From: Hormiphora californensis | Taxonomy: Eukaryota; Animalia; Ctenophora | Assembly (NCBI GenBank): GCA_020137815.1 | Contig: CM035355.1 | Location: 2,356,001-2,420,000 of the forward strand | Length of the DNA stretch: 64,000 nucleotides | Reading direction: 5' to 3' | In this document: one piece after another, positions 32,301 to 44,300 of the stretch | Numbering within the stretch: the first letter of the stretch is position 1 | How the letters are laid out: every line of letters begins with the position of its first letter | Program-made: the position numbers and the translations under genes | The notes under the pieces: model-generated | Database searches by the model: none | Told to the model about the DNA's origin: nothing | What the model saw: the letters and a program-made list of their open reading frames with translations, nothing else

Positions 32301-35300
32301 AAAAGTGTCCTGATTGGGCATAATTGAGCATAATTGGACACAATTGGGTACGTTGACCAGATCTTATCTTGCTAAATACGGCCTAAAATCTACATAAGTA
32401 CCCCATAAAACTCTTCCAGAACCCGGGGAAGTCGCTTTTAGCTTTGAGGGGGGGGGGGAGTGAGATAGTCGGGACGATGGGTGCAGACGGTTTCCAGCAT
32501 TGTAATTTGTTATTGTGTTACTGAAACAACTTATTCCGTTTTTAGGCATTGGACCCAATCTCATTTGAAATTGGTCTTAAGCAGTACCCGGCTGTGCCGA
32601 TTCTGAAAAAGAAACCTACTAGTGTAAGTTGTTCAATTGAATTTCATGTTGAGGTCGTTGCCAGCACAGTGAATTAAGTAACCGATAGTACATCAACCGA
32701 TAATTCATTTCAGACATTTGGGAACTATTATAAAATGGAGTCCGTAATTGGATATAACCACAAAAACAAAAAATATCAAGTATTATGGAACAGTGGGTAA
32801 GTTAACTGAAAATAAGGAGTTAATACTCATGTATGTACTTATTGTATCACTGTGCTGACAAGCGCAAAGGTGGACATCTTTCCCCTCCCCGCACAGTGCA
32901 GCCAAAAACGCAGTTTGATGGGTGTTTTGGCCCAAACCACGGATCCATTCATTTTATCTAAAACTTGGTAAACGTACCCGGCTGGGGGCCTTTAGTCATG
33001 ATACAAATAAGAAGTCATTCTCATGTCTGGTTTTTACAGGACATACTGGGGCCCCCCTTGCCCCCATTATGTAAAACCATATCAACTGTTTTAGAGAAAC
33101 AACGTGGGAAACAGCGCAACACATACCTGAGGAGGAAATAAAAAAATTCGTTGTATGATATAAGATAGTAGTTTCACGTATAGCTGTAAAAATTTTATGA
33201 TCATTATATCATACTAAACAATGAATATATTAAACATTATATGCATGTACAGTCAAAATTGAATCGATTTACCGTATGTTTTGATTTACCGTGCATGGGC
33301 ATGGAGTATCCCCCCCCCCCCCCCCCCAAGACAGCCACTGCAGGCAGGAAAAGAGATCAATAGCAGAGTCTAGAAATTTGGGTGAGGGGTTAAAGTGTCC
33401 GTTCATAAGTCACGGATACGGTTAAAAACCTCGAAAAGTTAATTCAAAGTTCCTTCATAAAATTCAATATCGTTTAATGATGCTTGGACTGGATATAATG
33501 ACTAGATTTCCATCTTATCGCAGGATCCGAATGTCCAACAGTAGAGTGTTCATTGTTCAAGCAATTAGGTTTTATGCTAATGCGAGCTATTGTACACAAA
33601 GTCATTTATGACAACTGTATTTGGTTCGCTATACATGTTTCATTGGAGCTCAAAAGGGCAACTAATGGTCTGGCGAAATTCGCCCGAAGGGCCCATGATA
33701 TGAGTATACTCATGTAGATACATAGAACCCCAATAGAACATTATATCTAGGAGTTAAAAGTTAGTAAGCTGGTGTGTAACTAACTGTGTAGAACGAAAAC
33801 CCAGGGCCTATACTCAGGCCGTGGGGATGCAGTCTGCCTAGTGCACAAACTAAGCCACAAAATAATAGAATCAGTTGCATGGTGGCCCAGTTCTAGTTAG
33901 TTCCTTTATATCACACTCGCTCTCAATAAAACAGCAAAATATCCCTATCGAGACTAAACACAGTTAACTTTCGCCCCCTGCAAGAGGTGAGAAAAACTTG
34001 CCTGTAACATTTCCACGATGTGTCAGAAAAGTTCTGGAGTTGATATTTCATTCTATACAAATGCAAATTGACAAATTATGATATGACCCAATTACTTTGA
34101 CAAAAACTGGTTCACAAAAACTAGTAATTTGCCCTAGTTTCTACGATGAGGGGTACACAATTTTGAAGAAAATTTTGGGGCTTGAGACCACAATTTTTTA
34201 ACAAATGTCAAAGTCTAATGAATTGGACGATAGAACCTGAACCAAAATGGGGAAAAATAGGCGTGGCTGATCCTCAGTTCCAGACCACAACTATTTACCA
34301 CTGGGACCTTCAGGTACGGTTTCAGTGGCGGCTATTCACTTGAATCCCAGGGAATAGCCGTCACTGAAACCTGAGATCTCAGGAAAACAGCCGTGACCCG
34401 AACCCAAGGTTCAGGCACAACTGTTTTCCTCCTACACAGTTTAAAAATGTAGTGCCATATTTTTGCAGGGAGATACAATTTCTAGTGAGGAAGAAGATAT
34501 GCTACTGGCGACGCCAACCGCTTCCAAGTCAGGCGAACACAATGCACTAACCACCTTGACATCAGGGGAACACAATGCACTAACCACCTTGACATCAGGG
34601 GAACACAATGCACTAACCACCTTGACATCAGGCGGACACAATACACTAACCACCTTGACATCAGGCGGACACAATGCACTAACCACCTTGACATCAGGCG
34701 GACACAATGCACTAACCACCTTGACATCAGGGGAACACAATGCACTAACCACCTTGACATCAGGGGAACACAATGCACTAACCACCTTGACATCAGGGGA
34801 ACACAATGCACTAACCACCTTGACATCAGGGGAACACAATGCACTAACCACCTTGACATCAGGCGGACACAATACACTAACCACCTTGACATCAGGCGGA
34901 CACAATGCACTAACCACCTTGACATCAGGGGAACACAATGCACTAACCACCTTGACATCAGGGGAACACAATGCACTAACCACCTTGACATCAGGGGAAC
35001 ACAATGCACTAACCACCTTGACATCAGGGGAACACAATGCACTAACCACCTTGACATCAGGGGAACACAATGCACTAACCACCTTGACATCAGGGGAACA
35101 CAATGCACTAACCACCTTGACATCAGGGGAACACAATGCACTAACCACCTTGACATCAGGCGGACACAATACACTAACCACCTTGACATCAGGCGGACAC
35201 AATGCACTAACCACCTTGACATCAGGGGAACACAATGCACTAACCACCTTGACATCAGGGGAACACAATGCACTAACCACCTTGACATCAGGGGAACACA

Positions 35301-41300: not shown

Positions 41301-44300
41301 AAGCATCTCTTCTCAGTGACGAACTGGAAGGACCTAGGATTACACCACATTGAGATTCGTGACGCGAAAGCGAAGTTCGCGGCAGGCATGATGTGCCTAA
41401 CTCCCGTTAGACCAGGGTAGGTAACACACACATATATATATATAGTCCACCTGATACATCATCATTATGATTTATCAAACCTTCGACTATATATATGCAC
41501 CTATATTTGCACCTATATTTTGTTTTTAGGGAAATCGTGTCGCTGAAAGTATGTGCAGTAAAAAAAGCGGAAAAGTTTAAGCTAAATGCCATCAAGTACA
41601 AGGATGTTTTGGGGAATGTAGCAAGACGACCAGAAACAACCCTAGTGCTGTATACTATAGACAACCCAGAAAGAGGTAAGATAAAGGATGGAATTATCTA
41701 ATATCGGGAAGTTTACCTTCTTGTGCCTCAAAATTTGGCCATTTTTCCCTCTTATCTCCCGAGTGAATTCCGTATTGACTATATTTGCCTTTACGCAGGG
41801 AAGTACAAAAAGGCATTAATATCAGGGTTAGAATTCGACAAAATACTAAATAGGTGTAGTGTCATGTCATGTCCCCTTAAAGCATAGTAACCCCGCAAAG
41901 TTACGTGTTAGATAAGAAGCGTGCGGAAATTGAATTATGATGAAATTCCGCCTTTATGTAACGGTTTAGAAACATTGACATAACAGGTCTTCCCCCGCTC
42001 TTTTTTTTGCAGAATCGGGAAACGTTCCATCACAAAAGACGTTTGGAACCTATGGGCCCAAGCACGTTGTTGTTCCGGAAACTTTACATAATGGTTTGTG
42101 TGAGCTGATCAAAAGCTTGGGGCTAACGGAGAAAAGCTATGTAAGTGTATAAGTGTATGTAGAGTGAGAGGGGCACCATTTTAGATTTATTATATTGTCT
42201 TGTCGTTTTGACAATCTTTTTTAGCGAACTAGTGAAAGTTTTGGTGAAAACTGCACCACTACCATGTGGTTGAAATATGGCCCTAGCCCCTAGCAGTATA
42301 AGCAACACAAAGGACTGTAGTGATGCTTGCATGTAAATTGAATCAAATTTCAGTCACAAGTCAGAGAAGTTCGGTTTTGAAATTTAGATCCTTTAGTATT
42401 TAAACAATTATCTATTGCAGATATTCACAACAAAGACTGGTTCCTTTATGGATTTATCAAAGAACAAGGTGATGATATCAGGCAAGCAACGAACGCCAAT
42501 GGATTTCAGACGTTCGGCATGTACAGGTAATTTACGTTAATACATAGTTATCACGTCATTGCGTGCACTTTTCTTGGAAATAGATAAGACATTCCACCAG
42601 TATCCATATAATGGATATCCATTTGTATCCATGAACATCCATGAAAAATATTCATGAAGTATTCATGAATATCCATGGACATTCACGAATATTCATGGAT
42701 TTTCATGTTATGCGTGACGACAGTCGGACCCCAATTTAGTGGCCCCCGATTTAGTGGACACCCCGATTTAGTGGACAAAACCCTTTCCCCCGAGGATGCC
42801 ACTAAATCGGGGTCCGACTATATATCAATTTTTTGTGAATTCTATCCATGGATATCCATGGATATTTTAAGTGCCATGGTGCAGTTCTCATCAACCACAA
42901 AGGCATCAACATGAACATACTATAACGATAAGATTTAAAGAACCTAAATAAGAAATTGATAAATTTTTAAGGATATATTCGACACCCGGAAGTGGAAAGA
43001 AAGAGCGATCAAGAATACTCGAGTATATTGGCGAGGGTGGCCCACCATACATGGGCTACACAGCAAACATGGTATGTTGTATTTTGATTTTTGAATAACC
43101 CATGACGCTTATTTTGAATAAATATAACAGACAGAAAAACAGACAGACAGACAGGCATACATAGAGACAGACAGACCGGCAGACAGACAGTCAGATGGAT
43201 AGACAGACAGACAGACAGACAGACAGACAGACAGACAGACAGACAGACAGACAGACAGACAGACAGACAGACAGAAAGACAGACAGACAGACAGACAGAC
43301 AGACAGACACACAGACAGACAGACACACAGACAGACATTTTTTCTAATACCGGCCGTTCCGAGATTTCTAAACCCTGCTACTTTGATCTTTTGCACTTTC
43401 ACGTGCAAAAGACCAAAGCAGTGGCTGCCTTCGGCAGCCAATGGGCAGGGAAAAAGTGTTGACCCTCATCTCGAAGAAATTCCTAACTAATATTCTTCAT
43501 ACAGCTACGTTTTCTTGAAGAGAGAAGGAAGCATAATGTGTGCCAGAGACTACATCGATGCCTTCTTTAAGATGCAAAGAAGAGGGTTCAAAGTCATGAC
43601 ATTAGAGCAAAAATTAAACATTGAATCGACCAGAGAGGACGACAGGAAATCAGGTCCATCAAGGCCAAAGAAACAGAAACGTTGCATGAACTAACTTAGC
43701 TTTAGACTCGTTAAATTTCATTGTTTCAGCTCTATAACTTCAGATAGTACATAATATCAGTGTTTATCAGTGTGCTAGGAGTTGAATTGATTGTGTACCA
43801 CTGGTTATTTTAGGGTCCGTGTGTATTATCAACTTTTATAGAATTATTTCAGTTTTTCAGCTCTATATCTTCAGATAGTACATAATATCAGTGTTTATCA
43901 GTGTGCTAGGAGTTGAATTGATTGTGTACCACTGGTTATTTTAGGGTCCGTGTGTATTATCAACTTTTATAGAATTATTTCAGTTTTTCAGCTCTATATC
44001 TTCAGATAGTACATAATATCAGTGTTTATCAGTGTGCTAGGAGTTGAATTGATTGTGTACCACTGGTTATTTTAGGGTCCGTGTGTATTATCAACTTTTA
44101 TAGAATTATTTCAGTTTTTCAGCTCTATATCTTCAGATAGTACATAATATCAGTGTTTATCAGTGTGCTAGGAGTTGAATTGATTGTGTACCACTGGTTA
44201 TTTTAGGGTCCGTGTGTATTATCAACTTTTATAGAATTATTTCAGTTTTTCAGCTCTATATCTTCAGATAGTACATAATATCAGTGTTTATCAGTGTGCT

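Follow-up and report, generated by a model that had tools for sequence, protein, structure and literature searches.

The subject of this analysis was a stretch of 64,000 nucleotides (nt) from the ctenophore Hormiphora californensis (contig CM035355.1, positions 2,356,001 to 2,420,000 of the forward strand), hereafter called the window, in which an earlier note had proposed the multi-exon tyrosine recombinase (YR) gene of a transposon with DNA-only mobility. We conclude that the window probably holds a CryptonV-like DNA transposon of 26.9 kb that lies within a (GA)n tract and, judging from its anatomy, would move by excision and reintegration through the YR it encodes. DNA-only mobility was supported, and the case was strengthened by element ends located outside the interval from which the gene had been described; no reverse transcriptase was detected in 96 other open reading frames (ORFs). 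Coordinates refer to the window throughout and are collected in Table 1.

Element boundaries and insertion site

Both ends of the element abut GA tracts of the same orientation, although positions that close (15 nt or less) to the edge of a GA/CT tract make up just 0.8% of the window. When the left inverted repeat was compared with the reverse complement of the right one, 23 of 25 positions were identical. Note that, due to the overlap with GA sequence, the exact end bases are ambiguous by a few nucleotides. A 15-bp motif, TACCCATAGTYGTAT, is confined to the element: all 61 copies detected at up to two mismatches fall within 18050-44978, and none occurs in the other 37 kb of the window. The outermost copies form part of the 25-bp inverted ends. 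GC content is 0.40 inside the element versus 0.43 and 0.46 in the flanking host DNA.

The host exons on the two sides of the element join in frame; the intron between them measures 28,430 nt, of which 1,485 nt would remain once the element is taken out. Based on the ends, the GA flanks and the in-frame host exons, the block is interpreted as an insertion into one GA tract of a host intron. Three non-GA bases (18039-18041) separate the left arm from (AG)20. Elements of the Tn916 type have imperfect inverted ends and a few carried-over bases, and by this likeness the three bases may have been carried over from a previous site; alternatively, the inverted ends may be 28 bp long, with these bases simply mismatched. 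A search for an internal copy of the circle joint predicted below found none in the element, and the paired 15-bp motif was not found in viral contigs.

Exon structure of the recombinase gene

An open spliced chain was found on the forward strand, as had been claimed, although the count of 16 exons and the length of about 1050 amino acids (aa) did not hold. Read from the proposed start at 34218, the chain has 17 exons and encodes 1,020 aa, ending at a stop codon at 43692-43694; all 16 introns are bounded by GT-AG and all 16 junctions are in phase, giving a single open frame. With the revised 5' end described below, where the start probably lies, 21 coding exons, 20 introns and a protein of 1,093 aa are predicted. 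When splice sites were ranked with a crude score, all 16 donors and 13 of the 16 acceptors came within the top 45 of their kind in 9.8 kb.

The chain was also sought by dynamic programming (DP), with splice scores, phase and stop codons as the only input, so that the search was blind to homology. Fourteen of the 15 internal core exons were recovered exactly and the fifteenth with a different acceptor. The DP score was 99.1 on the gene strand, versus 16.6 on the opposite strand and 6.5 to 38.9 in 20 block shuffles; comparison regions gave 19.9/27.0 (17000-29100) and 51.1/109.6 (host-gene region, 1-12100). The weight matrix was set by hand after the sites had been seen, and the DP result is therefore treated as support and not as an independent gene prediction. 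The proposal that so many in-phase junctions are unlikely by chance was borne out: from the splice sites and the frame, the exon chain is more than chance and the spliced recombinase gene is real, the splicing itself being predicted. One sequencing run under the same species label, its type presumed, matched only repeat fragments within 35680-43100 and nothing within 17940-19330; these gaps bear on neither expression nor copy number.

About one third of the protein is encoded by a repeat in exon 6 (approximately 34 units of 33 bp, or 11 aa, at 34529-35662). The first finger of exon 6 matches zf-BED at E=0.043, under the cut-off. The candidate exon at 41799-41853 does not chain to the strong acceptor at 42013; the one acceptor with which it would fit, at 41987, is weak. 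In intron 5, a 190-nt open stretch (33524-33713, forward strand) follows a strong acceptor; it does not chain with exon 5 and is a possible alternative exon. All nine nested hairpin or repeat insertions checked inside the gene lie in introns. The hairpins resemble miniature inverted-repeat transposable elements and are of different ages, with arms 69-95% identical.

Recombinase identity and catalytic residues

To obtain relatives, metagenomes were scanned for the exon 18 motif, widened with additional residues. Among 121 loci, 36 were kept by eye as a family, and the 85 dropped were mostly members of a transporter family and chance frames. Its members are long ORFs that lack introns and encode a pair of Cys/His fingers, a SAM-like domain and an end resembling that of a YR. 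All ten tblastn matches at E<=1 fell in family loci (best 5.6e-5). The family profile scored 25.5 bits against the spliced model and 13.1 bits with the selecting motif masked, compared with 5.2 bits for the best of 500 shuffles; the region after the motif alone scored 16.7 bits, a value reached by none of 300 shuffles. When the last five exon pieces were permuted, only two of 120 orders gave at least 25.8 bits, both with the last four pieces in genomic order, and the next best gave 13.8. The score thus depends on genomic exon order.

PF00589 was matched in six of ten family members, every match being under the cut-off. The family profile retrieved XerA at E=2.9e-7, and also a staphylococcal integrase, XerH and Tn1549 Int; in the alignment behind this profile, four of 21 rows were exons from the window. 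An AlphaFold model of one member, L023, had a predicted local distance difference test (pLDDT) score of 88.3, and all 35 rows among the matches listed for it in the PDB were YRs, including XerA, XerH, Cre and lambda Int. Folded from its single sequence, L023 reached a pLDDT of just 34.9. By profile and predicted fold, the metagenomic family is a YR family. The assignment of the spliced product as a tyrosine recombinase, which had been proposed from its motifs, is supported by the comparisons above, the fold evidence being that of the relative L023.

In an alignment of 27 family rows with lambda Int, residues R869, K928, R992, H1023 and Y1032 fall on the catalytic columns of Int. As had been reported, the catalytic motifs are spread over five exons: all five residues were found, in the order R..K..R..H..Y, each in an exon of its own. 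Within the family, the first Arg is conserved in 26 of 27 rows, the second Arg and the His in 27 of 27, and the Tyr in 22 of the 23 rows that reach it; the Lys is present in 27 of 27, which results from selection by the motif. The spacing from His to Tyr is 9, as in XerA. The replacement of the box-II His was confirmed (Met989) and proved not to be peculiar to this gene: none of the 27 family rows has His at this position (T in 14, N in 9, K in 3 and Y in 1). For this reason the loss is regarded as a trait of the family and no sign of decay. The match to the SAM-like (core-binding) domain of the family amounts to 3.0 bits, with 6 of 300 shuffles as high, and the relatives match Phage_int_SAM weakly. 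The family zinc-finger profile does not score the fingers of this protein (42 of 300 shuffles as high).

Searches for closer relatives gave little. A word search with exon 18 returned four candidates, none at E<=10. A phmmer search of 1.84 billion proteins gave three matches, all bacterial TPR proteins matched via repeats, and these were rejected. In the ESM Atlas, exon 18 found only aminotransferase look-alikes scoring below 0.9 and exon 19 found nothing. A motif scan of viral contigs gave seven loci, none of them a YR; two profile searches gave 13 and 4 relatives, none near this gene; and a BFVD search returned phage and giant-virus integrases, nothing specific. In a tree, the model sits on a long branch in a group with L127 and L129; because this group is unsupported, no closer assignment in the family is made.

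Three further loci of high GC content (L067, L102 and L128) belong to this His-less YR family at a greater distance, which suggests that the family is not restricted to animals. Two loci show repeats near their YR sequences, namely short repeated-motif arrays upstream of the ORF in L040 (1-470) and a (CAT)n tract near YR fragments in L044 (1-141). In these relatives, the former may be subterminal arrays and the latter a microsatellite target.

Revised 5' end and likely chromodomain

Predicted exons 1 to 5 (30783-33152) chain in phase into the acceptor at 34469. Because they do, 34218-34313 is probably not the first exon; it would be intronic or an alternative exon. The start codon assigned is an ATG at the end of predicted exon 1, but the frame of that exon is open, so that the start could be further 5'.

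A chromodomain profile was built from 20 chromodomains; of these, 18 were scanned, and all 18 exceeded the Pfam cut-off. Run against the six-frame segments of the window, the profile ranked exons 4 and 5 first and third. Pfam PF00385 matches exon 5 at E=0.057, under the cut-off. The joined N-terminus scored 9.6 bits with the chromodomain profile, and the best of 1,000 shuffles scored 8.0. We think it likely that exons 4 and 5 encode a chromodomain. Two of the three positions of its aromatic methyl-lysine cage are present (Y64 and W83) and the third falls inside a three-residue gap, so the cage looks incomplete in this alignment.

Some 225 bp before predicted exon 1 there is a perfect 52-bp palindrome (30507-30558), and an arm related to it occurs at 30307-30330. 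It is possible that this palindrome is a promoter element or the ends of a small transposon.

Interior of the element

The left part of the element contains an array of direct and inverted blocks, 98-100% identical to one another, in which most copies of the 15-bp motif form inverted pairs separated by 5 or 7 bp. Two array units were compared and differed by 16 groups of differences, three of which cluster in one motif site; a 105-nt indel also starts at a motif site. Two other indels and most substitutions lie away from motif sites, so that the idea of differences placed at motif sites throughout was borne out only in part. Recombinase action within the array is possible.

The 96 other ORFs (at least 48 aa) contained no reverse transcriptase and no other mobile-element or cargo gene; three weak matches were under the cut-off, and a gene in small exons could be missed by such a scan. 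No second strong exon chain was found in 18039-30700, where the best score of 35.5 was within the shuffle range. Rfam gave no matches in 17000-46500, and neither long ORFs nor convincing viral families were found inside the element, one match at E=0.0038 being under the cut-off. An inverted duplication (27275-28654), with arms 70-82% identical and centred on (CT)19 at 27986-28024, also lies inside the element.

Proposed mechanism

Every step of the mechanism is drawn from the anatomy of the element, from known Cre/Int chemistry and from a model proposed for Cryptons (PMC3212892). The 1,093-aa protein, translated from a spliced mRNA, would comprise the likely chromodomain, an 11-aa repeat linker, two zinc fingers, a core-binding (SAM-like) domain and the catalytic domain. 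The fingers, the core-binding domain or both would recognize the copies of the 15-bp motif, which would serve as accessory sites of the arm type, and would bring both element ends together. Y1032 would then nick and rejoin DNA through a 3'-phosphotyrosine and a Holliday junction, in the manner of Cre and Int. Excision would release a circle; at its joint, the two inverted arms would flank a spacer of about 6 bp, part GA and part three non-GA bases. The circle would recombine with another (GA)n tract; such tracts would be plentiful targets in this genome, mostly within introns and of little harm to the host. The likely chromodomain may bias binding toward some chromatin state. Since no RNA intermediate would be involved, introns would persist. 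The gene may have resided long in eukaryotes, as had been proposed from its introns, which is one of the weaker points of that proposal.

A wider interpretation goes further on each count. On this view the element would be the first to be described from a separate animal lineage of recombinase transposons that are giant, rich in introns and equipped with a chromodomain, as the animal equivalent of the fungal Starships. It would home to GA microsatellites with a His-less active site, 15-bp arm-site arrays and Tn916-like carry-over of bases. The interior would have been self-rearranged at the arm sites, and the element would still be mobile and could deliver at least 25 kb into GA repeats. As a whole, this interpretation is doubtful.

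Weight of the evidence and alternative explanations

Several points weigh against a CryptonV-like transposon moved by its own recombinase and are gathered here with the alternatives on which they bear. A single copy at one GA site was observed in the 64-kb window, and target specificity and mobility are extrapolated from it. A target duplication would be invisible inside (GA)n. Comparable ends were found in none of the 11 family loci with flanks, most of the loci being short. Because the spacers of the paired motifs in the internal array are mixed (5 and 7 bp), these pairs are not uniform core sites.

Terminal inverted repeats (TIRs) of 25-28 bp with subterminal motif arrays are typical of DDE elements, and the 25-28-bp inverted end seen here also fits a DDE transposon. 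It is nevertheless quite unlikely that the ends belong to a DDE-type TIR transposon, non-autonomous here, with the YR gene riding along as a passenger, acting as a resolvase or having inserted separately within it. Published work describes a microsatellite-targeting DDE element, with a Ginger2-like integrase and 46-bp TIRs in (AT)n (PMC10871703), and certain transposons that have DDE plus YR (PMC3212892). In the present element, 12.7 kb are without an assigned gene, but the 96 ORFs contained no transposase family and 18039-30700 yielded no other exon chain that scored strongly. The YR gene was not seen to be bordered by ends of its own, and at the left end of the element three non-GA bases stand beyond the symmetric arm.

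At the N-terminus, the chromodomain signal is modest, as unrelated segments elsewhere reach up to 7.8 bits; exon 5 has a weak donor, and the DP search chose other small exons in this region. The box of the first Arg was placed by global alignment alone, its own profile giving the model no score, and MAFFT misplaced the exon that carries it. The model is 14-26% identical to the family rows and 17% identical to lambda Int, on a long branch. No YR match was obtained with single exons, the exon chain is predicted from sequence, and the family seeds were picked with a motif resembling exon 18. The last three points would be accommodated by a mis-assembled chain, or by a chance YR likeness in an unrelated zinc-finger protein, but such an explanation is very unlikely given that the match survives masking of the motif and holds in the region after it, that the score needs the genomic exon order, that the His-to-Tyr spacing of 9 is that of XerA, and that DP recovers the exons without homology.

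Two features of the catalytic domain depart from the family. The stretch from the first Arg to the Lys is 59 aa long versus 30 in L025, which amounts to about 29 inserted residues behind the first Arg box. Ahead of box II, 23 aa stand in place of 31, and the helix there is 8 aa shorter as a result; we take this helix to be the DNA-recognition helix of Cre/Int. Together with the long branch, the 20 introns and the intronic position of all nine nested insertions checked, these features would suit the same element with a recombinase that is weakened or only binds DNA in this copy, either because the copy was moved by a sister element or because the gene is becoming a domesticated chromatin-binding protein like DUF3504/ZMYM. 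The literature adds that domesticated Crypton genes are intron-rich (PMC3212892) and that intron-rich Glomhoppers have lower expression (PMC13465315). We consider this unlikely. Domesticated DUF3504 genes have lost the Tyr and the second Arg (PMC3212892), whereas all five residues are kept here; moreover, neither the two ends nor the motif clusters are disrupted, the reading frame has no break, and the insertion that contains the gene sits in an intron of another gene.

Comparison with known systems

The preferred reading, a CryptonV-like YR transposon within a GA tract, was compared with systems described in the literature. CryptonV families have been reported as microsatellite-specific insertions (PMC8869645), and CryptonV is named in a table of PMC5753468. 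The present element resembles them as a YR DNA transposon of animals in a microsatellite, seen here at one (GA)n site; the likeness is to the published description, and the features recorded here are a size of 27 kb, 20 introns, the likely chromodomain, the GA tract and the 25-bp inverted ends.

With Cryptons A/F/I/S and Glomhoppers the element shares a single YR gene, no reverse transcriptase, tolerance of introns and a circle intermediate that is proposed in each case (PMC3212892, PMC13465315). Intron-rich YR genes are already in print, with 1-20 predicted introns in Glomhoppers (PMC13465315) and multi-exon YRs in two nimaviruses (PMC10871703). YR sites are described as 11-13-bp inverted repeats with 6-8-bp spacers (PMC3212892). 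According to the same paper, Cryptons A/F/I/S have R-H-R-Y, terminal direct repeats of 4-6 bp and no TIRs, unlike the His-less box II and inverted ends found here; terminal direct repeats at this element would be indistinguishable from the GA tract. No DUF3504 (CryptonA) match was found in single exons or in the 10 relatives scanned.

The nimaviral YRs, compared by description, have the same layout of C2H2 finger, SAM-like domain and YR. They insert into simple repeats (telomere motif) or 28S rDNA and have non-viral decapod relatives (PMC10871703), whereas no viral gene family was found in this element. Kirc, the captain of the Starship Enterprise, likewise belongs to a large YR-mobilised element and combines YR, zinc finger and chromodomain; it differs in being fungal, in belonging to DUF3435, in having the YR first and the chromodomain last, and in the cargo genes of its element (PMC8092012); in Starships the captain is also the first gene. 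The element described here has an animal host, the reverse domain order, the YR gene near its right end and no cargo identified, and no DUF3435 match was found in exons or relatives.

The metagenomic family (L023, L025, L026, L032, L040, L042 and P0004-P0020) shares KT-x3-YGP, H-x8-Y and the lack of a box-II His, and also has a comparable tail behind the Tyr and two Cys/His fingers before the YR; it differs in its single long ORFs of about 600-1,000 aa, the lack of a chromodomain signal and the identity of 14-26%. Tn916/Tn1549, lambda Int, XerA and Cre share the catalytic residues and have the fold predicted for the relative L023, but they are prokaryotic and intronless and keep the box-II His. 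DIRS, Ngaro and VIPER have a reverse transcriptase-RNase H ORF and an intronless YR, in contrast to the 20 introns here, with no reverse transcriptase match. Domesticated DUF3504 genes (ZMYM/WOC/KCTD1/KIAA1958) differ in that here the Tyr and Arg are kept and the element ends are intact. In the literature searched, which did not extend to Repbase Reports or Kojima 2020, no GA-inserted or chromodomain-bearing animal YR DNA transposon was described.

Host surroundings

The window is host DNA of animal type; it contains an amino-acid permease ORF, and pieces of kringle, PAN-like, Cys-rich and SLC6-like type were recognized by eye. On the reverse strand, about 4700-54900 is taken up by a very large mosaic gene of the host, which has many Cys-rich repeat exons, an exon resembling F5/8 near 17125-17383, exons of kringle and PAN-like type at 4700-8100 (by eye) and an internal duplication of 2.0-2.3 kb at 50300-54300. 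The permease gene (14700-16784, forward strand; PF13520, E=1.1e-30) is apparently nested in an intron of this mosaic gene. Exons of an SLC6-like (neurotransmitter:sodium symporter) transporter were recognized by eye at 57000-60400 on the reverse strand. Just to the right of the element, a 190-codon open frame (45329-45901, forward strand) has a weak F5/8 type C match at E=0.0037; it lies inside the same host intron, on the strand opposite the host gene, and could be a gene nested there or an exon copied in inverted orientation.

Table 1. Features of the element, its recombinase gene and the insertion site, in window coordinates.
Feature	Position	Strand	Remarks
Whole element	18039-44983		26,945 bp between two (GA)n tracts
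Left flanking (AG)20	17998-18038	+	inferred target, left part
Right flanking (GA)57	44984-45095	+	inferred target, right part; orientation same as left
Left terminal inverted repeat	18042-18066	+	25 bp
Right terminal inverted repeat	44962-44986	-	25 bp, runs into GA tract
Left subterminal cluster	18050-18251		6 copies of 15-bp motif, both orientations
Right subterminal cluster	44651-44978		12 copies of 15-bp motif
Host Cys-rich exon upstream of interrupted intron	46309-46445	-	phase-1 donor 46309; 5' edge approximate
Host Cys-rich exon downstream of interrupted intron	17700-17878	-	acceptor 17878; 3' edge approximate
Internal array	19333-24325		direct and inverted blocks, 486-bp and ~1.95-kb units, 43 copies of 15-bp motif
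Predicted exon 1	30783-30833	+	ends in ATG 30831-30833, inferred start codon
Predicted exon 2	31758-31850	+	in-phase chain, DP
Predicted exon 3	32546-32623	+	in-phase chain, DP
Predicted exon 4	32714-32796	+	first half of likely chromodomain; rank 1/2,779 segments
Predicted exon 5	33095-33152	+	second half of likely chromodomain; rank 3/2,779; donor score -0.8
First exon of the earlier note	34218-34313	+	open frame, good donor, poor acceptor
Exon 6	34469-35875	+	1,407 nt; acidic stretch, repeat, BED/C2H2-like finger, first half of second finger
Exon 7	36457-36506	+	His pair of second finger
Exon 8	36619-36795	+	splice chain and DP
Exon 9	37147-37170	+	24 nt, frame-symmetric
Exon 10	37409-37499	+	splice chain and DP
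Exon 11	37615-37721	+	start of predicted core-binding/SAM-like region
Exon 12	38036-38124	+	splice chain and DP
Exon 13	39411-39506	+	weak match to family SAM-like domain (6/300 shuffles as high)
Exon 14	40044-40123	+	alternative in-frame acceptor at 40002
Exon 15	40451-40526	+	splice chain and DP
Exon 16	41317-41416	+	first catalytic Arg, R869 (VRP/GE)
Exon 17	41530-41675	+	~29-aa insertion relative to family
Possible extra exon	41799-41853	+	55 nt, strong acceptor; excluded from main model
Exon 18	42013-42140	+	catalytic Lys, K928, KT-x3-YGP (QKT..YGP)
Exon 19	42421-42526	+	box II (DFRR): Met replaces His, R992; preceding helix 8 aa short versus core family
Exon 20	42972-43071	+	H1023 (HHTW)
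Exon 21	43505-43694	+	catalytic Tyr, Y1032 (H+9), basic tail, stop
Hairpin insertions	35963-36207; 39194-39380; 40562-41175; 37748-37847 with 43357-43455; 42605-42712; 34318-34371		
131-bp tandem repeat x4.9	43715-44362	+	directly 3' of stop codon

Implications

Animal YR DNA transposons are thinly described, CryptonV amounting to a name and one sentence in the literature searched. Here, one window presents a full anatomy, with both ends, the target, a candidate binding motif, the interrupted host intron and an intact-looking enzyme, and this anatomy makes the long-proposed, little-tested circle mechanism of Cryptons testable with a defined substrate. Such elements can reach 27 kb, with a 21-exon gene that is missed by ORF- and Pfam-based scans. 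The alignments point to a widespread YR family that would work without the box-II His, and the likely chromodomain suggests that YR, zinc finger and chromodomain were joined on a second occasion, independently of the Starship captain. A recombinase inserting large DNA into GA repeats would interest genome engineers.

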